Virus record (IMG/VR): IMGVR_UViG_3300045391_007586 | DNA from: a virus | Taxonomy: Duplodnaviria > Heunggongvirae > Uroviricota > Caudoviricetes | Direction: 5' to 3' (one strand) | Length of the DNA: 64,000 nt | In this document: positions 1 through 26,572 of the stretch, piece by piece | Layout of the letters: each line of letters opens with the position of its first letter | Numbering within the stretch: the first letter of the stretch is position 1 | Notes under the pieces: model-generated | What the model was told of the DNA's origin: nothing | The model's database searches: none | The model's input: only the letters and a program-made list of their open reading frames with translations | Translations under genes and position numbers: made by a program

Positions 1-705
1 GTTGAACTCGTATTTGCCAACGTGAACCTGCCGGTCGAACGGGTAGTAGACGCGGCCAGACATCACTTCGAAGGACGCCAGAAACTCCTGCTTGAACGAC
101 TTCTCGTCCATGTCCTTGCGCGCCGCTTCAATCTCCGCTGGTGGGATGAACGGCGAAGTGATAGTCGGAAACTGCCACGACTCCCAGATGCCGCGTGCGC
201 GTAGCTTCGCGTCCTGACCGTTCTTGTAGACGGTGTAGAGGTAGTTGTAGGCTTTCGGTGTGCCGATGAAGATCGCGGAGCCGCCCCGGTCAGCCAGGGT
301 CGGGCGCAGCACCTTCGTCCACGTCTCTTCGGTCATGTCCTGGAACTCGTCCAGAACGATGAAGTCGATACCGACGCCGCGCAACGAGTCCGGCTTGTCG
401 GCACCCTTCAGCTCGATCCGGGAACCGTTGATGAGCGTGATCGAAAGCGTCGTCTCGTTGATCTTGCGCACCCACCGACGCGGGATTGCTTCCAGCAGGT
501 CGGTCCACATGATCTGCTTTGCCATGCGGTAGCTCGGCGCCACATACCAGACCTTTTGCCGCTTCTTCTTTGCGGCCCACTTGATCATTTCGACGCGCGA
601 GAGTGCCGTCTTGCCCCAACGGCGACCGGCGACCACCACGCGGAAGCGCGCGGGCGAACGATGCACCTGCCATTGCTTCTCGTGCAGGGAGAGATTGACG
701 CGCAT
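1..705 (-). CDS. terL: terminase large subunit, N-terminal ATPase part (gene runs off window start)
   Basis: Minus-strand translation from ATG at 703-705 gives MRVNLSLHEKQWQVHRSPARFRVVVAGRRWGKT...VLDEFQD: Walker A and Walker B of phage terminase ATPases. Starts 12 nt after the terS stop. Confidence 0.8.
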   Translation of the reverse strand, partial: MRVNLSLHEKQWQVHRSPARFRVVVAGRRWGKTALSRVEMIKWAAKKKRQKVWYVAPSYRMAKQIMWTDLLEAIPRRWVRKINETTLSITLINGSRIELKGADKPDSLRGVGIDFIVLDEFQDMTEETWTKVLRPTLADRGGSAIFIGTPKAYNYLYTVYKNGQDAKLRARGIWESWQFPTITSPFIPPAEIEAARKDMDEKSFKQEFLASFEVMSGRVYYPFDRQVHVGKYEFN

Positions 706-10113: not shown

Positions 10114-10500
10114 ATGAGAAGGGTCTTGAGCATGATCGTCGCCGGCACGATCGCTGTGTGTGCGGCGTCGTCGGTGCAAGCGGAGGATGAATCTCAAGAG
10201 GTCTACGCCGTCGCCTACGTGAACGGGAACCACTACCAGGAATACGATGTGACGACGCGCACCATCTACGTCATGGGCGTGGTGGACGGCTTGGCGGGGT
10301 CATTCACGATGGGCGGAAGCACGCGTCGAGCGAGCGCGCTTGGAGCGTGCTTGAAGGGCCTTCCGGGCGCCCAGGTGCGAGCGGTCGTCGACAAATACAT
10401 GACCGACAACCCTGCTCATTGGGACTGGTCCATGCCCATCCTCGTCTACAACGCCATCAACACCATGTGCAAAGAGCGCGGAACGCCTATCTACCCGTGA
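10114..10500 (+). CDS. secreted protein with signal peptide
   Basis: MRRVLSMIVAGTIAVCAASSVQA signal; GGAGCGGGGAG RBS. Confidence 0.55.
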   Translation: MRRVLSMIVAGTIAVCAASSVQAEDESQEVYAVAYVNGNHYQEYDVTTRTIYVMGVVDGLAGSFTMGGSTRRASALGACLKGLPGAQVRAVVDKYMTDNPAHWDWSMPILVYNAINTMCKERGTPIYP

Positions 10501-11167
10501 CCTGGCGAGACCGCCCAAACCCGAGCGCGGCGGGCCGGTCGTATTCCGAGTGCTTGATCTTGAGCCAGTCGCGCGAGCGGCCCTTCTGGTAGGTGGACTG
10601 CAAGCGCTTCGCCACCATGCCTTCCATGCCGTGCTCGATCACCTGCCCGAAGACCCATTCGCCGGCAGTGACGATGCTGCTCACGACGACAAGCGTCTTC
10701 GTGGTCTCCAGGCAATCGGCCAGGACTCGCTTGCGATCGACGAGCGGGAGCCCGCGAATGTCGCGCTTCCCGGTCGCCAGTATGTCGAAGATGTAAAGAC
10801 GCGCGGGATGCAGCGAGGCAGCAGCGCGCACGTTCGCTGACACCGATGTGCGTGCCCGGATTTGCAGACGGTCGAACGACGGTTTGCCCTTCGCATCATC
10901 GACGGTCAGCTCGGCATCGCACACGAACGATCCCGGCACCGCGGAGACGGCCGCAACGATGTCTGGAAATGAGCGATTGAGCGAATTGCCGTTACGGGAG
11001 ATCAGCTCGACGTGCTCGCCGGTCTTGCGGATCAGCGCCCTGAAGCCATCGTATTTGAGCTCGAACAGCCATGCAGGGTCCGAGAACGGGCTCTTGCGGA
11101 TGGATGCAAGCATCAGGTCGGTATGATCGATCGGACGTGTCAGCGGCACCCCAAGCGCCTTCGGCAT
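10487..11167 (-). CDS. lig: ATP-dependent DNA ligase
   Basis: KYDGFR (KxDGxR adenylation motif I) plus downstream ligase motifs. Confidence 0.8.
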   Translation of the reverse strand: MPKALGVPLTRPIDHTDLMLASIRKSPFSDPAWLFELKYDGFRALIRKTGEHVELISRNGNSLNRSFPDIVAAVSAVPGSFVCDAELTVDDAKGKPSFDRLQIRARTSVSANVRAAASLHPARLYIFDILATGKRDIRGLPLVDRKRVLADCLETTKTLVVVSSIVTAGEWVFGQVIEHGMEGMVAKRLQSTYQKGRSRDWLKIKHSEYDRPAALGFGRSRQVTGR

Positions 11168-11244
11168 ATGGCCTACCTTCTACCCGAAACCTGCCTTGCG
11201 CGAATGCGCTATATTTACTCGACCCACAGAAACGGGGAAAAATA

Positions 11245-11613
11245 ATGGGCAGGGTGAAGCTGACGAAAGAAGAACGATTTGCGCGTTGCCGCAATCAAGC
11301 CGCAACGCTTCGCAGGCACATCGCGCGGTGCGACCCTGCCACACAAAAGGACATTATCGCGAGGCTGCGTCGCGAATGCGAATACCTCGAAAAGAAGGCG
11401 GCAAATCTCGACCCGTCGAAGCCGAAGGATCAACGGCGCGAAAATCTTGTGAAGCCGAATGGCGCCCCAAAGACGCGGCAGGAACTTCTGCTTGAACAGA
11501 TTCGGCGGGAGCACGGTCCAAATGTCCAAATCGAGTTCGTAGTTGAGCATGAGCCGAAGTCTGTCTGGACTACCGGGCAAGCTGGTGGTCCCGGCACGGG
11601 CAAGCGTCGCTGA
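11245..11613 (+). CDS. hypothetical protein
   Basis: 122 aa from ATG at 11245 with GGGGAAAAA RBS; basic protein. Confidence 0.3.
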   Translation: MGRVKLTKEERFARCRNQAATLRRHIARCDPATQKDIIARLRRECEYLEKKAANLDPSKPKDQRRENLVKPNGAPKTRQELLLEQIRREHGPNVQIEFVVEHEPKSVWTTGQAGGPGTGKRR

Positions 11614-12023
11614 GCGGCACATAGCCCGCCGCAGGCGGGCGCCGGGGCGCGAGCTGCGCGGTCTTCGTGCCCACTTCCCCACGCCCCAACTACCCTTCCC
11701 CCTTCCCCACGCCCCTATGCCTGCATGCCAGGAGGTATAAGGAGCGGTGTGGCATGGTCCCGGCCCGGATGTATAAGGAGTCGATATTTGGCACCCGGAA
11801 CGAGGAAGGCAGGGCCTCCGCGCCCCTCGGCGTTTTCTAGGACTTTTTCCCTGGCATGTTGCCCTAGCGCGACGCCTCACACTTCCCGATCGGCGTCAAC
11901 CATTGCCGGCAAGTGTTGCATGCCTGTCACGGTTGACGCCTGCTCCAATTCTGCTTGCGTCTCGCTTGTCTCTACCGTATGCCCGGTAGCGATACCGGGC
12001 TATGTCTGTCTGCTTTGACTGAT

Positions 12024-12788
12024 TCACGCGAAGAGTTTAACGAACGCTTGGGCGCGCGGGTTGTCTGCTGCAATGCTCATTTCGTCGTTACGCTTGCCCT
12101 TCACTACTTGCGCAATGCCCATTTCACGCAGACACATACGCGTAGAGCCCGATTGTGAGCCCGCGGTCCCTACGCTGCTATTCATGCGACGCACAAGGGA
12201 GGCTTGCGGTTCAAGCTCGGTATATTCGACGTTACGGGACAGGGAGACCAAACCGTCTTTGATGCGCAAACCGCCCAATGCGCACAGGTTCTCTCCGATG
12301 GTCATTGTGTAACCGTCAAGCTCGCGTTTAATACCTTGCCCGATAGCACGCGCGGTAGAGACAATCTTAACGAGTGTTTTAACCGCAACGAAGTCAACCG
12401 GGTTTTGCTTGCGGTCTGCAATCGCGCAGTTTTTCAGCATACGTTCGAAAACTTCTGAAAATTCAGCACGGGCAAAGCATGCGTTAAACGCGGCCCGGTC
12501 CCGGATGACGTTCTTTGCTGCGGTTTCGGTATCAGCGCTCTTTACTTCGGTGTTACGCGCGACGAGGACCGCGTTAAACTCTGCTGCGAAGTCGCGCGGT
12601 TCGTTGGTCGTTTCGGGCTTGGTTTCGGGCTTTGCGGTTTCGTGCATGGTTGCGCCCTTGCCCTTTGCAGTGGAGCCCTTTGCTGCGCTCTTACGCGGTG
12701 CGCGTGCGGGCTTGGTTGCTGCTGCTGCGCTCTTTGCTGCTTCGATAGCTGCGAAAGTCGGGAAAACGAAAGCGTTAGCGGTTTGCAT
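12024..12788 (-). CDS. hypothetical protein, Lys/Ala-rich N-terminus (possible DNA-binding or initiator-like)
   Basis: 254 aa; adjacent to the iteron-like repeat region; motif 1 copy at 12869-12893 upstream. Confidence 0.5.
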   Translation of the reverse strand: MQTANAFVFPTFAAIEAAKSAAAATKPARAPRKSAAKGSTAKGKGATMHETAKPETKPETTNEPRDFAAEFNAVLVARNTEVKSADTETAAKNVIRDRAAFNACFARAEFSEVFERMLKNCAIADRKQNPVDFVAVKTLVKIVSTARAIGQGIKRELDGYTMTIGENLCALGGLRIKDGLVSLSRNVEYTELEPQASLVRRMNSSVGTAGSQSGSTRMCLREMGIAQVVKGKRNDEMSIAADNPRAQAFVKLFA

Positions 12789-13116
12789 GGTCGTATCTCA
12801 CACTGAGAGGGTTAGGGCACATCGCCCGGTTGATTGCGCTGTTTCGTTAGCGCATGTCGCTATCTTAGGTCAGTCAGTTGCGACTGACAAGGAATTTTTT
12901 CGTGTTGTTTTTGCGCGGATTGCTTGACGGCGTGTTTTGGCGGCGCTATTTGCGCGTGCGCGTCTGTATGTAATGGCGACAGGCGAGCGACCGGCGACCG
13001 GGTGGCGCGTGCGTAAGCGTGCGATGCGTGCCACCTGCCTGTCTCCGGTGCGCGTCGCGTGTCTGCCGTGGCTTTCGCGTGCGCCCTGCCCGCTTGCCAT
13101 TTGCCACGGATCACAT

Positions 13117-13236
13117 GCGCGTATTTTTCAGGAAAACGGATGTCGGCGCCGGCAGGCATTTCCGTGGCACCGGGCAGGCATGCGCGTATTTTCCAGGAAA
13201 AGGCGTGTCGCCGATGGCAGGCATTTCCACGGCATT
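13117..13236. repeat. tandem imperfect direct repeat (about 60 bp x2) with GCCACGGAAA / TTTCCGTGGC boxes
   Basis: gcgcgtatttttcaggaaaacggatgtcggcgccggcaggcatttccgtggc and gcgcgtattttccaggaaaaggcgtgtcgccgatggcaggcatttccacggc. Confidence 0.55.
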
Positions 13237-13363
13237 GCCACGGCACGCCGGCCACAAGACGAGAAACGTGCGTGGGCCATCCTTGTCTCGTCAGGTCAAC
13301 CACGCACGCGCTTAAAGGCAGTAGCTCAACACTTCCTCCAGTTCCGTCTTCTGTCCTTGCTGG

Positions 13364-13543
13364 TTACAGATACCGGTCGTCCTTCATCATGCGGCTGCGT
13401 CGAATGCCGGCGCGGGCCGCGCGGATCGTCTCCTGTTCTTGCAGCTCGTCGAGATACGCCATGTCGGCTTCGATGGGCATGGCACCGATGTGCGAGGTCA
13501 GGCGAGTGCGTTGGGCGATGGGCATATTGCGCAAGACGTTCAT
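13364..13543 (-). CDS. small hypothetical protein (59 aa)
   Basis: AAGGAG RBS 6 nt upstream of ATG; MNVLRNMPIAQRTRLTSHIG... Confidence 0.35.
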   Translation of the reverse strand: MNVLRNMPIAQRTRLTSHIGAMPIEADMAYLDELQEQETIRAARAGIRRSRMMKDDRYL

Positions 13544-13619
13544 GTTGACTTCTCCTTCTCTGGTTAGATTGTCGTTCAGTTACGACAGACACATTGTGCA
13601 ACCTGAAAACTGGCGATGG

Positions 13620-13820
13620 TCAGAACTTCACCGGCGACCTGAGCGAGGCGATACGCTTGGGCATGCGGCACTCGTCGCCGGTCCACCACTGGCGAATGCC
13701 ACGAGCCTTGTTGAACAGAATGTCGATCAGCCCGCACCACAACGCGCCAATGCCAACGGCTGCGCCAATCACGAGTGCGAATGCTGCGATCCATTGTGCC
13801 AACTCTGCTGCCTGGTTCAT
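13620..13820 (-). CDS. small membrane protein (66 aa)
   Basis: AGAGAGGGGAA RBS; MNQAAELAQWIAAFALVIGAAVGIGALWCGL. Confidence 0.4.
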   Translation of the reverse strand: MNQAAELAQWIAAFALVIGAAVGIGALWCGLIDILFNKARGIRQWWTGDECRMPKRIASLRSPVKF

Positions 13821-13994
13821 GTTCCCCTCTCTTGAAAGTCTGTCAGTTGCGACAGAACGAATATTCGCACCTGCCGCATGGATTGAGTGTGGCTTTCTTC
13901 TAGTCGCCGAAGGTAGAAAAACATCCTTGCCGTCGCCACGGCAAATCCGTGGCATTTCTTTCTCCCGGCACGCTCGCCGGGATGGTCCTTGCCG

Positions 13995-14144
13995 TTACGA
14001 CAGCGACGGCACCGTCCGATACGGGTCGATGCTCACCAGATTGCCCATGTCGTCCGTCGTGAACAGTCCGCCATGTCCATCCCACACCTTGTAGAGAAAG
14101 CCAAAACGGCGCGACAGGACAGGCAGCACTTGCGTGAATTTCAT
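13995..14144 (-). CDS. small hypothetical protein (49 aa)
   Basis: CAGAGGGGAAC RBS then ATG; MKFTQVLPVLSRRFGFLYKVW... Confidence 0.3.
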   Translation of the reverse strand: MKFTQVLPVLSRRFGFLYKVWDGHGGLFTTDDMGNLVSIDPYRTVPSLS

Positions 14145-14377
14145 GTTGTTCCCCTCTGGGTGGTTGCGTTTCGGTAGTCGTATGGTCACAAGCTCAATGA
14201 GGCAATGGTGCGGCGCGTTGCACGTTGCCGTGGCCCCCGCTGGATGTTCGCCGGGCTGGCAATGCCACGGAAAGCTCGCCGTTCGCCGCTTGCCGGGCCG
14301 GGTCCGCGTGCTACGCTCTCTGCATCACATCGACATGCGCTTTGCCGCCACCTGCCGGCGCCTCTCGCGTGAAAACT

Positions 14378-14495
14378 CCAGGAAAGGCGGTGTCGGCGTG
14401 CGCAGGCGTTCCGTTCGACCGCGTGCCGGTGCGTGCCAGGCTGTAAGGACTCGGCGGAAAGTGGATGTTGGCGATGGCGGAGGCCCATTGACGCT
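14378..14495. repeat. two further copies of the about 35 bp iteron-like repeat
   Basis: tccaggaaaggcggtgtcggcgtgcgcaggcgttccgttcg and cggcggaaagtggatgttggcgatggcggaggcc resemble the 13.1 kb repeats. Confidence 0.4.
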
Positions 14496-14569
14496 ATAAG
14501 GCAAACCCATCACGCCTTACATACCCCCTGCCCTACATGCCTCTATGCACACTCATCCACTCTCTGTCT

Positions 14570-14791
14570 CTATTGACTGACTGTCTGGCGAGGCACGTAT
14601 CCATCCTTCTCTTTCCGTATCCACTGTCTCGTCTCCTTGCTCCACGTGTAATCGTCATCCTCTCCGGGCATGTAGAAGTCGAGCGCCGCGAGTGCTCCGT
14701 GTCCGTAGCCTCTGTTGTTCATTGCGTCCGCGATCGTCTTTCCGGTGACGACTTCCTTGTCACCGCCGCGCCAGTAAAGCGTGAATTTCAT
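14570..14791 (-). CDS. hypothetical protein
   Basis: 73 aa; AGAGAGGAAGAG RBS. Confidence 0.5.
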   Translation of the reverse strand: MKFTLYWRGGDKEVVTGKTIADAMNNRGYGHGALAALDFYMPGEDDDYTWSKETRQWIRKEKDGYVPRQTVSQ

Positions 14792-21086: not shown

Positions 21087-21176
21087 GTTTGACTCGTTGT
21101 GTTGTTTCGGTATGTGTATGGTCGCGATTGCAGACAGGACTATCAATCAGCTACGACTGATTGTCCTGTCAAACCG

Positions 21177-21914: not shown

Positions 21915-22022
21915 GGTGTCCTCTTTCGCGCACATCGCGCGTCGTTGTTTCGGTAGACGTATATTCGCGCCCACGCGTAGGAGCGTCACTCATCTACGAC
22001 TGATAGCCTGCACAAAAGCCAA

Positions 22023-22298: not shown

Positions 22299-22491
22299 GG
22301 CGTTGTTCCCGACTTGGCAGGACGTTCAGAAAACCTTCGAAGCGCTTCCACAGGCTCGGCCGGCGCTCAATGTTGCGCGCCAGCTCTTCGCGCGTCATAC
22401 CCTCGCGCACCAGTTCCATGAAGACTTCGTTGGCACCAGCGATGTTGCGCTGCTGATTGTAAAAGATCGCGAGCTGCTCGTCATCGGTCGT
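22285..22491 (-). CDS. hypothetical protein
   Basis: GTG start after GGAAGAGG RBS. Confidence 0.4.
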   Translation of the reverse strand, partial: TTDDEQLAIFYNQQRNIAGANEVFMELVREGMTREELARNIERRPSLWKRFEGFLNVLPSREQRHDTH

Positions 22492-22793
22492 CACGCCTCT
22501 TCCTCCACGAGAACGCCGAAATACGCGTAGCACTCTTCGCCCGCTTGCTCGCTCCAGCGCCGACGAAGATCGAGGTCCGCGAACAGCGCGTCCGCAGCCT
22601 CGTGCAACGCCTCATAGTCTTTGGGCGTCGCCTGCTTGTCGCCCATGTAGCCGGACCATCCGTTGATCTCGTCGTGCAGTCCATTCAGGACCGCATCGGA
22701 GCGCATGTTCCGGCAGAGTGGAACCGCGAACGTCTCACCGCCAAAGCCCTGAAAGTAGTCGAGCAGACACGTATCGAGGTATTTGATGTTCAT
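22491..22793 (-). CDS. hypothetical protein
   Basis: Start set at MNIKYLD so that the motif 2 copy (22809-22848) lies upstream, as at the other seven sites. Confidence 0.45.
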   Translation of the reverse strand: MNIKYLDTCLLDYFQGFGGETFAVPLCRNMRSDAVLNGLHDEINGWSGYMGDKQATPKDYEALHEAADALFADLDLRRRWSEQAGEECYAYFGVLVEEEA

Positions 22794-22925
22794 AGTCTTG
22801 TCGATATTGGTTGTGACAGACATATGCTCTCAACCGGGTATAGGCGCGACCAGTCAGTTTTGTGGCGATCGTGAAGGCGCGCTATCAGCGCACACTGTGG
22901 ATGGCCGCACGGGCGCACTGAATCC

Positions 22926-24332
22926 CTATAACGAACGCGCCAGCGTCCCGACCGCCTCTACGCTTCGCTCGAACTCGCATGTCCAAGGGTGGCCGTAGTT
23001 CAGCCGGACACAATTTCGGAATCCGCGTGTTGCCGAAAAGATCGGGCCAGGCGCAATGCCGATGCCCTGCTCCAGCGACAGCTCGAAAAGGCGTAGCGCG
23101 TCGGCCTGCGGCGGCAACTCCAACCAAAGAAAATAGCCTCCCTGTGGGCGCGCAACTCGCGTCCCAGACGGAAAGAATCTTTCGACGGCCTCCACCATCT
23201 TGTCTTGTTGAACGGCAAGATTTCTCCGGAGTTGGTGCAGATGGCGATTGTAGCCGCGACCCTGCAAAATATCGGCAATGGCCAACTGTGACGGCACGAA
23301 CGTCGATATATTGGTCATCCACTTCGCCCGCGCGACCTGCTGCGTGAAGCGGCCCGCCGCAACCCATCCCACGCGATAACCTGGCGCGAGGCTCTTTGAG
23401 AAGGAACTGCAATGGAGCACCAACCCTTTCCGATCGAATGTCTTGGATGGGCGCGGACGCGACGCTCCGAAATACAGTTCGGCGTATACGTCATCCTCGA
23501 TCAGCGGCACGTCATGAGCGGCCAGCAGTGTAACCAATGCATTCTTCGCCGCGTCCGACATAGTGACGCCGGTCGGGTTCTGAAAAGACGTCATGAACAA
23601 GCACGCGCGGATTGGATGCCGCTGAAGCGCGTCAGCAAGCGCTGAAAGATCGAGACCTTCCGTCGGATCGATGGGAATCTCGATGGCCTTCAGTCGTAGC
23701 CTATCGAGTATCTGAAGCGTTGCGTAGAAAGCCGGTGCCTGGATTGCGACCGCATCGCCGGGACTGGTTACGGTCTGCAAACAAAGCGTCAGCGCTTCCA
23801 ACGCTCCATTCGTCACGACAACTTCATCGATTGGCACCGCGATTCCCGCATCTAGGTAGCGACGGACAATCTGGCGCCGCAAGCTCTCGTCACCGAAGTG
23901 CAGTTCGATGCGGGTCGCGCCGGAACGCGTTTTGCGCATGACCGATGCCAATGCACGGTCGAGCCGATTCAATGGGAATGAGTCTGAACTTGGAAGCGCC
24001 GAGCCAAGCGGCACAATGTCGGGATTCTCGATCGAATCCAACACCCGAAACACGAGATCGTCTGAATCAGCCGTCAGGGGCACGCATGTCGGTCGGACGA
24101 TCGACGATCCAAGCAATGTCTGACAGGCACCCGGCACGACGAAATAGCCGGAACGAGGCCGCGCCTCAATGAGGCCGTCGCGTTCCAACAAGTAATAAGC
24201 CTGAAACACCGTTCCCGCGCTCGCGCCATACGACTTGGTCGCCTGACGCACAGACGGGAGACGCATGCCTGGGACAAGATGTCCGCACCGAATTAGCCCG
24301 GCAATTTGCGCCGCCAGTTTCTTGTAACGCAT
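22926..24332 (-). CDS. MocR/GntR-family transcriptional regulator with PLP-dependent aminotransferase-like domain
   Basis: N-terminal GntR wHTH (VRQATKSYGASAGTVFQAYYLLERDGLIEARPRSGYFV) and a class-I aminotransferase fold. Confidence 0.85.
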   Translation of the reverse strand: MRYKKLAAQIAGLIRCGHLVPGMRLPSVRQATKSYGASAGTVFQAYYLLERDGLIEARPRSGYFVVPGACQTLLGSSIVRPTCVPLTADSDDLVFRVLDSIENPDIVPLGSALPSSDSFPLNRLDRALASVMRKTRSGATRIELHFGDESLRRQIVRRYLDAGIAVPIDEVVVTNGALEALTLCLQTVTSPGDAVAIQAPAFYATLQILDRLRLKAIEIPIDPTEGLDLSALADALQRHPIRACLFMTSFQNPTGVTMSDAAKNALVTLLAAHDVPLIEDDVYAELYFGASRPRPSKTFDRKGLVLHCSSFSKSLAPGYRVGWVAAGRFTQQVARAKWMTNISTFVPSQLAIADILQGRGYNRHLHQLRRNLAVQQDKMVEAVERFFPSGTRVARPQGGYFLWLELPPQADALRLFELSLEQGIGIAPGPIFSATRGFRNCVRLNYGHPWTCEFERSVEAVGTLARSL

Positions 24333-24608
24333 GGTTCGAATACCTTCGCCGCATTGTCGGTCGTCCGGTTGCCCCCTTTGAATTTGCGACGGTCAATGGT
24401 GGCGAGGGCGCCGCTCGACATGGGTCGGTCTTATTAGAAATTAGTGGCAGAACAGAGGCTCCTCGTTTGTCCCGCTGGTGTGCGCCACACTTTGCGCTGT
24501 CGCTCGGGCAGAAAGTCAACCTTAAACGATGTATTACCACCTAAAACGCCCTTCATGTCAATAGGTTGTCTTGCCACTATTTGGGTGGTATATGATGGGA
24601 GGAATGAA

Positions 24609-24968
24609 GTGCATCAGGAAGAACAAACACCACTGTCAAAATCCGTGGGGAAAGCGATTGCAAACCGCCGGGTTCTGGCGAATCTGACTCAGGAGCAGGT
24701 CGCCGAAAAGCTAGGGATCGGGCAGGAAGCTATCTCGCGGATGGAGAGAGGCGTTGCGAGTCCAACGGTCACCCGTTTGGCGGAGTTGGCCGACATATAC
24801 AAATGCGATCTCAGTCAGTTGCTTACTGAAGCCTCGGATCGGGAAGACGACCAAGCCAAGATCATCTCCGCCATCATCGGTCGGTTACCCAGTAACGATC
24901 GACTCCTACTGATCGAATGGCTAAAGGCATTTGCCGACAGGCTTCTATCGGCGTCTAGACCAAATTAG
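24609..24968 (+). CDS. XRE-family (Cro/CI-type) HTH transcriptional regulator
   Basis: GTG start after GGGAGG RBS; LANLTQEQVAEKLGIGQEAISRMERG HTH; candidate TTGTCT-17-TATATG promoter upstream. Confidence 0.75.
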   Translation: MHQEEQTPLSKSVGKAIANRRVLANLTQEQVAEKLGIGQEAISRMERGVASPTVTRLAELADIYKCDLSQLLTEASDREDDQAKIISAIIGRLPSNDRLLLIEWLKAFADRLLSASRPN

Positions 24969-26572
24969 ACCCGGTAAACTTGCAATTTCGAAGTCTTGGT
25001 TAGCGAGTGTCGACGCAATGAACCACCTCGTTCGGCATCTCGCGCCCTCTGAAGTCTCCCCGCAAGACGTGACGGTCCACCGCTCTCAAGGAATGCCTCC
25101 AGCCGGGCAATAGTCAGCGCGCGACTGTAAAAGAAACCTTGTCCAAAATCGGCTCTGGAGGCGTGGAGTGCCTGGTGGTGAGCTGCGCTTTCGACTCCGT
25201 CGGCCACGAGCATGGCGCCTACGTCGTGAGCGACATCGGCCATCGTCGCAAGGCGCGACACGCGCTCGTCGCTGTCAAGAGTGAGCACCTGCCTGTCCAT
25301 CTTGATCACATCGAAATCGAAGTTCCTGAGCAAGCGGAAGTTGATCGGGCCTAAGCCGGCACCAGCGAGCGCAAATCGAACCCCGTCTTTCCTCAAGAAT
25401 GCCAACGATTCCAGCACCCGTGACGCGGTGTCCGCGCAATCACTCTCCGTTACTTCCAGAACCAGATGGGGCAATATTCCATTGGCCGACTCCTGCACGT
25501 CTGATACGAAGCTGTCGGCGGCCATTTGAGCAGCGGAGACCTTCACCGAGATATAGAACGAATTCGCAACGCTCAACTCGGCGAAATCGCGGGCTACGGC
25601 AGCAAGCATGAATCGAGTCAGAGGGCCAACTACTTTGCTGTGTTCGAGACGATTCATGAAATGCGCTGGCCCTCCCAGACCAAATTCAAGATTGTCCCAA
25701 CGAAGCAGCGCTTCAATGCCGACGCACTTGCCAGTGCGGATACGGATCACTGGCTGATACTCCAGGCGAAACTCTCCGCGCTTCAATCCTCGTCGAGCTG
25801 CGCGAGCAAGTCTTGCATCCGGCGTAAATTGCCATCTGTAGAGCGCCCAACATCCAAGGACTAGCAGACAAATAAGCCCCAGACCGAGCAACACGTAGGC
25901 GCCGAAACGCACGGCCCAAGGATCGAAAGAAGGTGCACTGATCGCTTGCGACGACGGCTCGACAGGAAATATCCTGCTGCCCTGCACAGGCACGACCCGC
26001 TCAACACACGCGCGACCCTCTCCGCATTCGGCCAGAATCGGCAACCTTGGCGCCGATTGGATAGCATCCCCAGCAGGCGCCGACACGGGCGCCGGGGCCA
26101 ACGCGTCCATGCTAAACGGCACGCTGGGCTGAGCCACGATAGAAGGGCTCACTGCTACGGAAGCGTCAGGAATAACGTTTGTGTCGGCCATGCTGCCAAG
26201 CGCCCCACCGCCGATCTCCAACGGGTCGAGCATTGAAATGCAACGCAGTTGGTGAATGTCCACCTGTCCTATCAGGCCTGCGACCGGCCCCGCCAGCGTT
26301 GCGGGTGCCGGTAGCATGACGGGAAGCGTGCAGACGGTGCCGAATTGCAGACGCGCAACGTGCTTCGGAGCAGTCATCTCCGACAATCCTTGCGCAAAGG
26401 CCGCGATCCGACGCCCCACGTCATCGATCACACTACCCGGGCTCGTGTTCGCATGCGCGGGAGGTTCCAATGCGGCGAGAAGAAAAAGCATGACGAACAG
26501 TGATTTAGTCATGCGAAAAGATGGTTTATCGCCCGGTCTCACGGCGTCACGTTGGTGGCTTATGGCAATCAT
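24965..26572 (-). CDS. membrane-anchored EAL-domain c-di-GMP phosphodiesterase (CSS-like periplasmic sensor plus EAL)
   Basis: LEYQPVIRIRTGKCVGIEALLRW EAL signature; N-terminal hydrophobic segments; start could alternatively be ATG at 26512. Confidence 0.8.
   Translation of the reverse strand: MIAISHQRDAVRPGDKPSFRMTKSLFVMLFLLAALEPPAHANTSPGSVIDDVGRRIAAFAQGLSEMTAPKHVARLQFGTVCTLPVMLPAPATLAGPVAGLIGQVDIHQLRCISMLDPLEIGGGALGSMADTNVIPDASVAVSPSIVAQPSVPFSMDALAPAPVSAPAGDAIQSAPRLPILAECGEGRACVERVVPVQGSRIFPVEPSSQAISAPSFDPWAVRFGAYVLLGLGLICLLVLGCWALYRWQFTPDARLARAARRGLKRGEFRLEYQPVIRIRTGKCVGIEALLRWDNLEFGLGGPAHFMNRLEHSKVVGPLTRFMLAAVARDFAELSVANSFYISVKVSAAQMAADSFVSDVQESANGILPHLVLEVTESDCADTASRVLESLAFLRKDGVRFALAGAGLGPINFRLLRNFDFDVIKMDRQVLTLDSDERVSRLATMADVAHDVGAMLVADGVESAAHHQALHASRADFGQGFFYSRALTIARLEAFLESGGPSRLAGRLQRARDAERGGSLRRHSLTKTSKLQVYRV

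Follow-up and report, generated by a model that had tools for sequence, protein, structure and literature searches.

Conserved repeat modules upstream of a predicted winged-helix protein gene in a phage-plasmid-like element

A gene-poor stretch of 1.6 kb (12890-14520) in a Caudoviricetes sequence, IMG/VR record IMGVR_UViG_3300045391_007586, carries direct repeats beside the gene for a basic protein. The question is whether this stretch is a replication origin, as a sequence-only reading had proposed, or DNA with another role. The window is the whole 64,000 nucleotide stretch that was analysed, and its features are listed in Table 1. The proposed interpretation is partly supported. The stretch is best explained as the region that controls a small cassette of early genes in an element resembling phage-plasmids.

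By sequence comparison, the window is colinear with the Acinetobacter phage-plasmids of the pABTJ2/ZW85p2 type. The element is probably phage-plasmid-like with a backbone of this type, and its host is probably Paraburkholderia-like. Resistance genes are carried by phage-plasmids of the pABTJ2 type, which are frequently met in clinical Acinetobacter. Eight related loci were compared, with footprinting in five relatives. Every gene of the region is on the minus strand, a point that the sequence-only reading overlooked.

Table 1. Features of the repeat region and the adjacent gene (positions in the window)
Feature	Position	Strand	Remarks
254-aa protein gene	12024..12788	-	Predicted Lys/Ala/Pro-rich tail, helical domain, winged-helix domain
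Conserved 5' leader of 254-aa gene	12789..12860	-	Three small hairpins
Sigma70-like promoter TTGTCA-17-TAAGAT	12862..12890	-	Promoter scan
Conserved block GTCAAGCAATCC-N4-AAAAACAACACG	12901..12928	-	Sole A-rich stretch of the region; GC 45-47%
Block D, GACGCGCACGCGCAAATAGCG	12943..12963	-	Alternating purine-pyrimidine tract, then AATAGCG
GGTCGYC heptamer repeats	12975..12999	-	TRF period 7
Inverted CCNNGG(CA) box pair	13066..13109	.	Boxes 13066-13071 and 13104-13109, 38 bp apart
Unit R1	13114..13169	-	56 nt; core 73-100% identical in five relatives; on gene strand: CCACGG box, AAATGCCTGCC, N4, GCCGACA, about 20 nt, TACGCGCA
Unit R2	13179..13245	-	Tandem copy; unit itself 13179-13234; includes two boxes (13227-13232, 13238-13243; 11 bp apart)
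Terminator-like hairpin, CGTGCGTGG ... CCACGCACG then TTTCTCGTCTT	13256..13310	-	After 59-aa gene
59-aa gene	13364..13543	-	Conserved as protein in relatives; operator-like motif upstream at 13571-13590 (20-mer scan)
66-aa single-pass membrane protein gene	13620..13820	-	Conserved in relatives; operator-like 18-mer upstream, 13839-13856
Two inverted boxes	13926..13953	.	11 bp apart; terminator-like hairpins on both strands
49-aa ORF	13995..14144	-	Strong Shine-Dalgarno; shared leader motif GACCATAC-N3-TACCGAAAC at 14165-14187
Distal-module inverted box pair	14228..14270	.	Boxes 14228-14233 and 14265-14270, 37 bp apart
Unit R3	14364..14419	-	Diverged paralogue of R1/R2
Possible unit R4, marginal	14429..14495	-	Weak core match
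Operator-like palindrome TCTGTCTCTATTGACTGA	14563..14580	.	Upstream edge of distal module

The repeats are real. Four direct repeats of about 35 bp had been described; three of these (R1, R2 and R3) were recovered, although their length is 56 to 65 bp and the fourth (R4) is marginal. R1 and R2, the tandem pair first placed at 13117-13236, are 56 nt each, with 84% identity and a period of 65 bp. Two diverged copies had been claimed at 14378-14495. The first of them, R3, matches at 34 of 56 positions, which beats all of 300 shuffles, and is found by an nhmmer profile of the unit with an E of 2e-5. R4 is doubtful, matching at 19 of 32 core positions (equalled by 11 of 2000 shuffles) with a profile E of 6.3. 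The non-coding DNA that contains the repeats consists of two paralogous modules, 12890-13310 (proximal) and 14145-14569 (distal). Each module has a unit of about 55 nt, made up of a CCNNGG box, AAATGCCTG, N5, GCCGACA and TRCGCGYA, followed by pairs of (TG)CC-NN-GG(CA) boxes.

The boxes are not what had been reported. A 10-mer, GCCACGGAAA, was said to recur at least six times, but there are only two exact copies in the window, and the seven copies with one mismatch or fewer are no excess over the 5.3 expected by chance. The true recurring core is GCCACGG, with 8 of its 16 window copies inside 12890-14520 (P about 2e-9). In its general form the box is (TG)CC-NN-GG(CA), the central dinucleotide being free, and the boxes of relatives are CCATGG, CCAAGG or CCTAGG. 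CCATGG does not occur in the window, where 12 to 20 copies are expected, and the boxes are kept there as CCGTGG or CCACGG. Their retention, although CCATGG has been purged, favours a role as binding sites.

Box clustering is specific to this locus. One 2-kb bin holds 8 of the 33 TGCCNNGG sites in the window, and 7 of the 32 in ZW85p2 are within 40.2-42.9 kb, which is the orthologous region. Counterparts of the 13066-13109 pair, 37-40 bp apart, are present in L003, L004, L005 and L002. In general, box spacing and orientation vary. The boxes are quasi-palindromic, therefore the inverted pairs could equally be weak hairpins, and those at 13926-13953 may be nothing more than terminator stems. The distal boxes are directly upstream of the putative promoter and leader of the 49-aa gene. 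In the proximal module the closest box is about 180 bp or more upstream of the -35 hexamer for the 254-aa gene; this is far for a simple sigma70 operator and speaks against a binding array.

The unit core is 100, 90, 77, 80 and 73% identical between the window and five relatives, and block D is 97, 90, 56, 63 and 65% identical in the same five. For the four-fold degenerate sites of the adjacent gene the values are 77, 50, 50, 57 and 34%, and the DNA between the conserved blocks diverges as expected of neutral sequence. A binding array should show this pattern, in which short motifs are better conserved than the neutrally drifting intergenic DNA around them.

Tandem units with the 65-bp period are found only in the window and in the 91%-identical relative L005, while four further relatives have a single unit upstream of the gene. 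Absence of the repeats from relatives with conserved flanks had been named as evidence against an origin; the tandem array is indeed mostly absent, but the unit is conserved. In the 39%-identical L095 the unit has been duplicated independently, with a period of 82 bp, and such independent duplication is a point in favour of binding sites. Besides its first unit, L001 has a diverged one 866 nt farther upstream, and the two-module layout recurs there. The AT-rich Acinetobacter ZW85p2 retains the short fragments GCCGACATCC and ACGCGCACGC..AATAGCG, as well as box doublets such as CCACGGCATACCAAGGCAT. Its block D reads ACGCGCACGCACGCGAATAGCG and lies 157 nt from the start codon, much as in the window. 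Among the relatives, gene and site were found together in every case. When public collections were scanned, the unit core gave only chance or coding matches, for example a rhizobial cytochrome c motif. Nothing relevant came from scans with the leader or the conserved pre-promoter block, and similar DNA was not found in the plasmid collection.

The region is variable among relatives, with cargo gained and lost. L001 carries the anti-restriction gene ardA nearby, and L095 has a ParA partition cassette 0.8 kb downstream, in which ParA has its own 76-aa partner gene. This variability, together with the strong divergence of R3 and R4, would suit non-functional remnants of local duplication in an accessory region that evolves fast. 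Such an origin for the repeats is extremely unlikely, because in five relatives conservation of the unit core and of block D clearly exceeds that of the four-fold degenerate sites. In addition, fragments recur in Acinetobacter and the boxes survived the loss of CCATGG.

The adjacent gene encodes a protein with a Lys/Ala-rich N-terminus, as the sequence-only reading had noted. Residues 1-65 are predicted to form a disordered tail. A helical domain comes next, and the C-terminal part is a winged-helix domain, whose fold is predicted with high confidence. The protein belongs to an uncharacterised family of 132 clusters at 50% identity, without a Pfam model. Neither it nor 80 members of the family matched the Rep families in Pfam, and the window's protein had no match to the NCBIfam Rep families. 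No relatives were found in IMG/VR contigs, JGI metagenome contigs or INPHARED phages, and a structure search of BFVD matched uncharacterised viral proteins only.

The sigma70-like promoter is predicted to drive the 254-aa gene, and the 17-bp spacing of its hexamers is kept in six relatives, as read from the alignment. The leader that follows is 57-87% identical in five relatives, compared with 34-77% at four-fold degenerate sites, and its RNAalifold consensus has 14 pairs with zero covariation. L095 has nearly the same A-rich block, and (GGTCGTC)x3 at the place equivalent to the heptamer repeats. Alternating purine-pyrimidine tracts are enriched in the region. The many motif classes present (unit, boxes, heptamers, CG/CA tracts and A-rich block) are typical also of origins and centromeres, which weighs against a binding array.

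Three tiny ORFs with strong Shine-Dalgarno sequences had been noticed, and these were confirmed as minus-strand ORFs of 59, 66 and 49 aa. The last has no protein homologue in the related loci compared and is therefore probably lineage-specific. The hairpin after the 59-aa gene was read from the sequence and is also part of the MFE fold; L001, L003 and L004 have an analogous hairpin and T-run. It was missed by the terminator scan because of its long loop, and is a putative terminator. The proximal repeats sit between this hairpin and the sigma70-like promoter.

The units might act in a transcript. They could serve as a small RNA or a leader, or in processing or antitermination, and the two paralogous modules would then be comparable to the nutL/nutR or putL/putR pairs. 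The presence of two such modules in one leftward gene string is consistent with this, as is the conserved, hairpin-bearing leader of the 254-aa gene. The distal module could form a long leader transcribed from the operator-like, promoter-like site at 14563-14580. A role in RNA is nevertheless very unlikely. The units fold no better than shuffles on either strand (z -1.3 to +1.8), the fold shared by six relatives is weak and its alifold covariation term unfavourable, Rfam has no match at the gathering threshold or at an E of 1, and the location of the proximal units between a terminator-like hairpin and the next promoter does not suit it. The absence of an RNA or ssDNA structure signal and of an Rfam match argues for action as double-stranded DNA.

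Other candidates were rejected. No known RNA families or tRNAs were found. Small early genes preceded by paralogous non-coding DNA of 300-450 nt, and ardA near the locus in L001, resemble the setting of Frpo/ssi in plasmid leading regions. However, the window lacks the long imperfect hairpin (about 300 nt) of a Frpo-type ssDNA promoter; the inverted repeats of the region are short ones only, and ssDNA folding gave z of -0.83, -1.65 and +1.98. The unit does not have the GG-N10-GC of a sigma54 promoter, and with 11 nt between -35 and -10 it is a misfit for an ECF-type promoter (both spacings judged by eye). Type III toxin-antitoxin repeats are contradicted by the single unit in most relatives and by the promoter and about 270 nt between repeats and gene. 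A small protein encoded by the units would have its frame broken by the 65-nt copy-number difference, and the upstream flanks are unrelated in relatives.

A separate operator-like element was overlooked in the sequence-only reading. The palindromic 18-mer TCAGTCA-N4-TGACTGA at 12870-12887 is the spacer of the promoter for the 254-aa gene. There are 32 sites in the window compared with 1.5 in shuffles; about 30 are intergenic, four of these being in or beside the region, and several small genes have the palindrome upstream or alongside. The site at 14563-14580 overlaps the stop codon of a 73-aa ORF (14570-14791). In the phage-plasmid P1, the C1 repressor has dispersed operators, which are asymmetric 17-mers. 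The distribution of the 18-mer matches this network of many scattered promoters under one master repressor, although the sites in the window are palindromes. This comparison applies to the 18-mer only and not to the units or boxes.

Iterons next to a basic protein gene had been taken as the classic layout of an origin. It is true that, as in Rep_3 iteron theta origins, conserved direct repeats are immediately upstream of a winged-helix protein gene, and that gene and site are inherited as one module. P1 oriR/incA is an example of an iteron-type theta origin. The classic reading is nonetheless unsupported. At least 3-4 near-identical direct repeats of 17-22 bp at regular spacing would be expected, and instead there are two 56-nt units, with one or two diverged copies at a distance of 1.2 kb, and four relatives have one unit. 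The units are long and the boxes are variable in spacing and orientation. No AT-rich unwinding element was found beside the repeats, which are 55-73% GC; GC falls to 45-47% only in the promoter zone 12850-12940 (about 60 bp). DnaA boxes do not cluster, there being one DnaA-like match in the region and a window total below chance. The cumulative GC skew, for which an inflection near 13-14 kb had been suggested, has no extremum there, just small gene-orientation wiggles. No signature of a Rep initiator (Rep_3 or related, WH1-WH2) was found in the product of the adjacent gene.

A textbook oriV is present in ZW85p2, the sole relative examined for an origin, about 40 kb from the orthologous locus. 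It has the Rep_3 gene repM, AT-rich DNA and at least 14 near-identical copies of a 20-bp iteron, is beside a DnaB-like helicase gene, and is the site of the cumulative GC skew minimum. At the repeat locus, in contrast, there are one or two units of 56-65 bp and GC is high. Judged from ZW85p2, the plasmid origin of this element family is probably located elsewhere.

P1 has separate plasmid and lytic origins, and by analogy the region could be a secondary, for example lytic, origin. Bound to the units and boxes, the winged-helix protein would then be an initiator or accessory factor, and opening of the A-rich block would be assisted by transcription that starts at the adjacent promoter. In its favour, several short-repeat classes adjoin a conserved DNA-binding protein gene that is always accompanied by the site, unit duplication is recurrent, and the ParA cassette of L095 is a usual replicon neighbour. 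About 130 bp of very AT-rich DNA with repeated TTTTATTTGYACTAA comes after the GC-rich block D in Acinetobacter. A secondary origin is nevertheless unlikely, given one unit rather than an array in most relatives, GC-rich repeats (55-73%) with no clear unwinding element in the window, and the lack of a DnaA-box cluster, skew extremum or Rep signature. The protein has a single winged-helix domain where Rep_3-type initiators have the WH1-WH2 pair, and ZW85p2 already has a canonical Rep_3 iteron origin with the skew minimum at it.

TubR-tubC of pBtoxis and StbA-stbDR of R388 are operator/centromere arrays bound by small winged-helix or HTH proteins. As in these systems, the region has short-repeat clusters upstream of a winged-helix protein gene, in two groups and with helical-period spacing, and the site could be both operator and assembly platform. 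The H1-like winged-helix protein might start to assemble at the boxes and from there spread along the DNA or bridge it, for plasmid positioning or partition, or for compaction or protection of the incoming genome. The box doublets about one helical turn apart, the two clusters about 1 kb apart, the locus-specific clustering and the adjacent ParA cassette in L095 are compatible with such a centromere-like or DNA-organising site. The winged-helix fold of type III partition (TubR-tubC) is likewise present, but a regular array is absent, and no NTPase partner such as TubZ or ParA was found among the neighbouring window genes scanned, where ORFs in 11167-12024 were only partly covered. The arrangement of the boxes differs from the regular tandem arrays of tubC, parC or stbDR, and the L095 ParA has its own partner. 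Compared with TubR and StbA, the 254-aa protein is larger, its basic tail is H1-like, it has an additional helical domain, and sequence homology was not detected. A centromere-like function is distinctly improbable.

It is about an even call that the region is a conserved array of protein-binding sites, which would make it a cis-regulatory or nucleoprotein-assembly region, possibly autoregulatory. The units and boxes are read as the footprints of sequence-specific DNA-binding proteins, and the region is therefore read as a cis-acting array of their sites. A dimeric or oligomeric protein encoded by the element would occupy, in both modules, the box pairs spaced at 10-13 bp and at 37-40 bp, the prime candidate being the adjacent winged-helix protein. 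Occupancy of the boxes would tune how the winged-helix gene and the small genes are transcribed, and the bound protein may link the modules across the 0.9-1.2 kb that separates them. The analysis establishes the anatomy, above-neutral conservation, locus-restricted clustering, promoter-like layout and predicted DNA-binding fold; binding and the identity of the protein are inferred, and the outcome could be repression, activation or looping. None of the motifs corresponds to those of a known regulator, a point against this reading.

Beyond this binding-site array, it is conceivable, though doubtful, that the winged-helix/H1-like protein and its upstream multi-repeat site are a new cis/trans DNA-maintenance module of phage-plasmids, acting as a lytic-type origin or as an anchoring, centromere-like or compaction site. 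We suggest equally tentatively that this module would be common to Acinetobacter pABTJ2-type and Burkholderiaceae elements and mobile between element backbones. More speculatively, the conserved alternating CG/CA tracts might be Z-DNA-prone targets of the winged-helix domain.

To our knowledge, the control circuits of pABTJ2-type phage-plasmids beyond the Rep_3 origin have not been described. The analysis defines a non-coding module conserved between relatives as distant as Burkholderiaceae and Acinetobacter, a winged-helix family that always accompanies it, and a separate genome-wide palindromic operator. If the region is merely a local operator array, it is ordinary regulatory DNA, and the lesson is that repeats beside a basic protein gene do not alone indicate an origin. 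If it is a control switch, second origin or anchoring site, it would provide a handle to understand or cure such elements.

The repeats that a sequence-only reading took for the iterons of a candidate replication origin or regulatory hub at 12890-14520 are real. Units R1 and R2 are in tandem and a diverged third copy, R3, scores above shuffles and matches (E 2e-5) an nhmmer profile made with unit sequences from the window and from related loci. Four repeats had been claimed; the last of them, R4, is marginal in both comparisons. The 10-mer GCCACGGAAA, said to recur at least six times, has only 2 exact copies, and its matches with up to 1 mismatch are at chance level. The core GCCACGG is clustered, with 8 of its 16 window copies in the flagged 1.6 kb (P ~2e-9). 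The box consensus from the relatives is (TG)CC-NN-GG(CA), the central dinucleotide being free. These quasi-palindromic boxes are found both as doublets (spacing 10-13 bp) and as inverted pairs (spacing 37-40 bp), and from their arrangement look like binding sites of dimeric or oligomeric proteins. The proximal and distal modules, both non-coding, are paralogous.

Features of the region, listed in gene direction (right to left); window positions unless a locus is named
Feature	Position	Strand	Description
73-aa ORF	14570-14791	-	
Operator-like palindrome	14563-14580		upstream edge, before distal module
Distal module	14145-14569		R4 (marginal), R3, then two inverted boxes 37 bp apart; before 49-aa ORF
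R4	14429-14495		
R3	14364-14419	-	34/56 positions match R1, above all 300 shuffles
49-aa ORF	13995-14144	-	
Box pair	13926-13953		forms terminator-like hairpins; between 49-aa ORF and 66-aa gene
66-aa gene			preceded by operator-like 18-mer
59-aa gene			after 66-aa gene, preceded by operator-like 18-mer
Terminator-like hairpin	13256-13310		between 59-aa gene and proximal module
Proximal module, first part			R2 and two boxes 11 bp apart, R1, two inverted boxes 38 bp apart
R2	13179-13234	-	tandem with R1, 65-bp period
R1	13114-13169	-	84% identical to R2 over 56 nt, 65-bp period
Proximal module, second part			GGTCGYC heptamers, block D (alternating CG/CA tract and AATAGCG), GTCAAGCAATCC-N4-AAAAACAACACG
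Sigma70-like promoter			TTGTCA-17-TAAGAT, spacer a palindromic 18-mer; before leader of 254-aa gene
Conserved 5' leader of 254-aa gene	12789-12860	-	~70 nt, three small hairpins
Palindromic 18-mers in or beside region	12870-12887, 13571-13590, 13839-13856, 14563-14580		
GACCATAC-N3-TACCGAAACAAC	14165-14187, 21101-21123, 21944-21966; L001 ~3820, 4540	- (window)	

Every plausible gene within 10.5-17 kb is on the minus strand. The 59-aa and 66-aa ORFs encode conserved proteins, the latter a single-pass membrane protein. The 49-aa ORF has no protein homologue among the related loci examined, and its leader motif is common to other small genes. This leader or promoter-proximal motif, GACCATAC-N3-TACCGAAACAAC, precedes several small early genes, with 3 matches where 0 are expected. 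The 49-aa and 73-aa ORFs have their first 13 nt in common, start codon included (ATGAAATTCACGC, MKFT), within a 14-nt exact repeat; the 73-aa ORF too is without a protein homologue in the related loci. The leader hairpins of the 254-aa gene are GCGCT...AGCGC, GGGC-GATGT-GCCC and CTCAG-TGT-GAGA. No covariation is found in this leader because the sequence is almost invariant, and it may serve to control translation or stability.

The palindrome TCAGTCA-N4-TGACTGA has 32 sites in the window with 3 or fewer mismatches, against ~1.5 in shuffles. Most sites are intergenic and precede a start codon by 15-80 nt; one of them occupies the spacer of the sigma70-like promoter. In L001 and L002, two related loci, the 18-mer is kept, its half-sites having changed in a compensating way. 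It resembles a genome-wide operator, comparable with the scattered sites of the P1 C1 network, or else a promoter specific to the element.

The window has a GC content of ~60% and encodes a DnaE-type polymerase (only 44% identical to its best phage relatives), SbcCD, ribonucleotide reductase (RNR), RtcB, a DEAD-box helicase, two ParB_N-domain proteins, an ATP-dependent ligase and a protein with a tail-fibre-like C-terminus. The gene order, from helicase/ParB through the 254-aa gene to RNR, SbcCD and MoxR, is colinear with ZW85p2, a 114-kb Acinetobacter baumannii plasmid of the pABTJ2 type. The complete set of siphovirus structural genes on ZW85p2 makes it a phage-plasmid. Because of the colinearity, and since the nearest homologues of the 254-aa protein are from Paraburkholderia nemoris and Burkholderia gladioli assemblies, along with metagenomes, the window is treated as part of a Burkholderiaceae phage-plasmid-like element.

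The block at 22313-25767 (encoding an EAL-domain protein, an HTH protein and a GntR-aminotransferase) is 95% identical to a P. nemoris contig (L001:1-3455), against 67-79% in the syntenic flanks, which suggests recently exchanged cargo. A Rap1a-like immunity gene is present at 10114-10500 (+), and relatives have defence or counter-defence genes near the locus: ArdA (L001 3863-4474), a Tad2-like protein (L002 16870-17346) and an Acb2/Tad1-hairpin protein (L095 7207-7488). Six-bp palindromes are extremely avoided throughout the window: CTGCAG 0 (27.7 expected), CTCGAG 1 (32.5), CAGCTG 1 (26.6), CCATGG 0 (12.4), GGGCCC 0 (10.9), CCCGGG 2 (20), AGATCT 0 and GGATCC 0. Such a pattern is usual in mobile elements that evade many restriction systems.

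The orthologous upstream region was compared in L001-L005 (Burkholderiaceae-type, 41-91% protein identity), L095 (39%) and ZW85p2. In all of these loci 430-590 nt of non-coding DNA precede the orthologue of the 254-aa gene. Identity of the unit core to the window is 100% in L005, 90% in L003, 77% in L004, 80% in L001 and 73% in L002; the corresponding values are 97, 90, 56, 63 and 65% for block D (12943-12963) and 77, 50, 50, 57 and 34% for four-fold degenerate sites of the adjacent gene. In the same five loci (L001-L005) identity of the 5' leader is 57-87%, and the DNA between blocks drifts at the neutral rate. By sequence comparison such conserved blocks in drifting DNA are a classic phylogenetic footprint, and neutral relics are the least probable account of the repeats.

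The 65-bp tandem units are restricted to the window and L005; in L095 an 82-bp tandem duplication arose independently. A second, diverged unit lies 866 nt upstream of the first in L001, so the window is not alone in its two-module layout. AT-rich ZW85p2 keeps the fragments GCCGACATCC and ACGCGCACGCACGCGAATAGCG, the latter at the same distance from the start codon (~157 nt) as its window counterpart, and box doublets such as CCACGGCATACCAAGGCAT recur. These short matches are each at chance level (BLAST E ~12), the argument being collinearity and position. Box clustering is confined to this locus in both the window and ZW85p2. CCATGG is absent from the window (12-20 expected) and CCGTGG or CCACGG stands where boxes of relatives have CCATGG; the boxes were therefore kept while a restriction-type palindrome was purged.

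Alternating CG/CA tracts are Z-DNA-prone. Such purine-pyrimidine alternations are enriched here: of the window's 36 runs that reach 11 nt or more, 5 fall within ~360 nt (12951-13311). At the orthologous position every relative (L001-L005, L095 and L091 of ZW85p2), including the AT-rich Acinetobacter, has such a run, of up to 20 nt.

An element acting as RNA is improbable. Neither strand of the units folds better than shuffled sequence, single-stranded DNA folding of both modules is unremarkable, six relatives share a weak consensus fold whose covariation term is unfavourable, and no Rfam match appears even at an E of 1. The proximal units have a terminator-like hairpin on one side and the next promoter on the other. 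These results, with the quasi-palindromic doublets and inverted pairs that look like dimeric or oligomeric protein sites, argue for protein binding at the DNA level.

The iteron-origin reading of the locus is not supported. The tandem array is not conserved, most relatives having one unit; the units are long, with variable box spacing and orientation; the repeats are 55-73% GC, the sole dip (45-47%) being at the promoter; no DnaA-box cluster is present at the locus; and cumulative GC skew has no extremum near 13-14 kb, where an inflection had been sought. Colinear ZW85p2 has its canonical origin ~40 kb from the orthologous locus, at the Rep_3 gene repM adjoining a DnaB-like helicase gene, where its cumulative GC skew reaches a minimum. 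Upstream of repM (L094 10900-11470) are at least 14 copies of ACGGAGTTTTTGTACCGTTA, a textbook iteron origin; the published account of pABTJ2 gives only four iterons, of 22 bp. The window stops at MoxR, short of the expected rep position; the Rep_3 origin is seen in ZW85p2. A secondary or lytic origin at the locus is unlikely, though the foremost of the alternatives: the repeats are of several classes, gene and site are invariably linked, a ParA cassette adjoins the locus in L095 and Acinetobacter has an AT-rich repeated stretch.

The 254-aa protein family comprises 132 clusters at 50% identity and has no Pfam match; the window's member has no NCBIfam match. Its AlphaFold model (pLDDT 89.6, 81-sequence alignment) has a low-confidence Lys/Ala/Pro-rich tail (residues 1-65), a four-helix domain and a C-terminal winged helix. 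The promoter of the 266-aa ZW85p2 homologue (L091 7520-7640) has three copies of TTGCACTAA and one of TTGTACTAA within 100 bp, with just one more exact copy in the 114-kb plasmid; this local operator set is consistent with autoregulation of the homologue.

Our best explanation, held with moderate confidence, is a conserved cis-acting array of putative protein-binding sites that would regulate both the winged-helix gene and the cassette of small genes. The winged-helix protein would be the most economical candidate ligand, through autoregulation, and may bridge the two modules. That the array is instead a centromere-like or DNA-organising site is doubtful, more so than a secondary origin. Binding-site arrays upstream of genes for DNA-binding proteins are already known in kind; not described in the literature and databases searched are the module, its protein family and the conservation across distantly related hosts.
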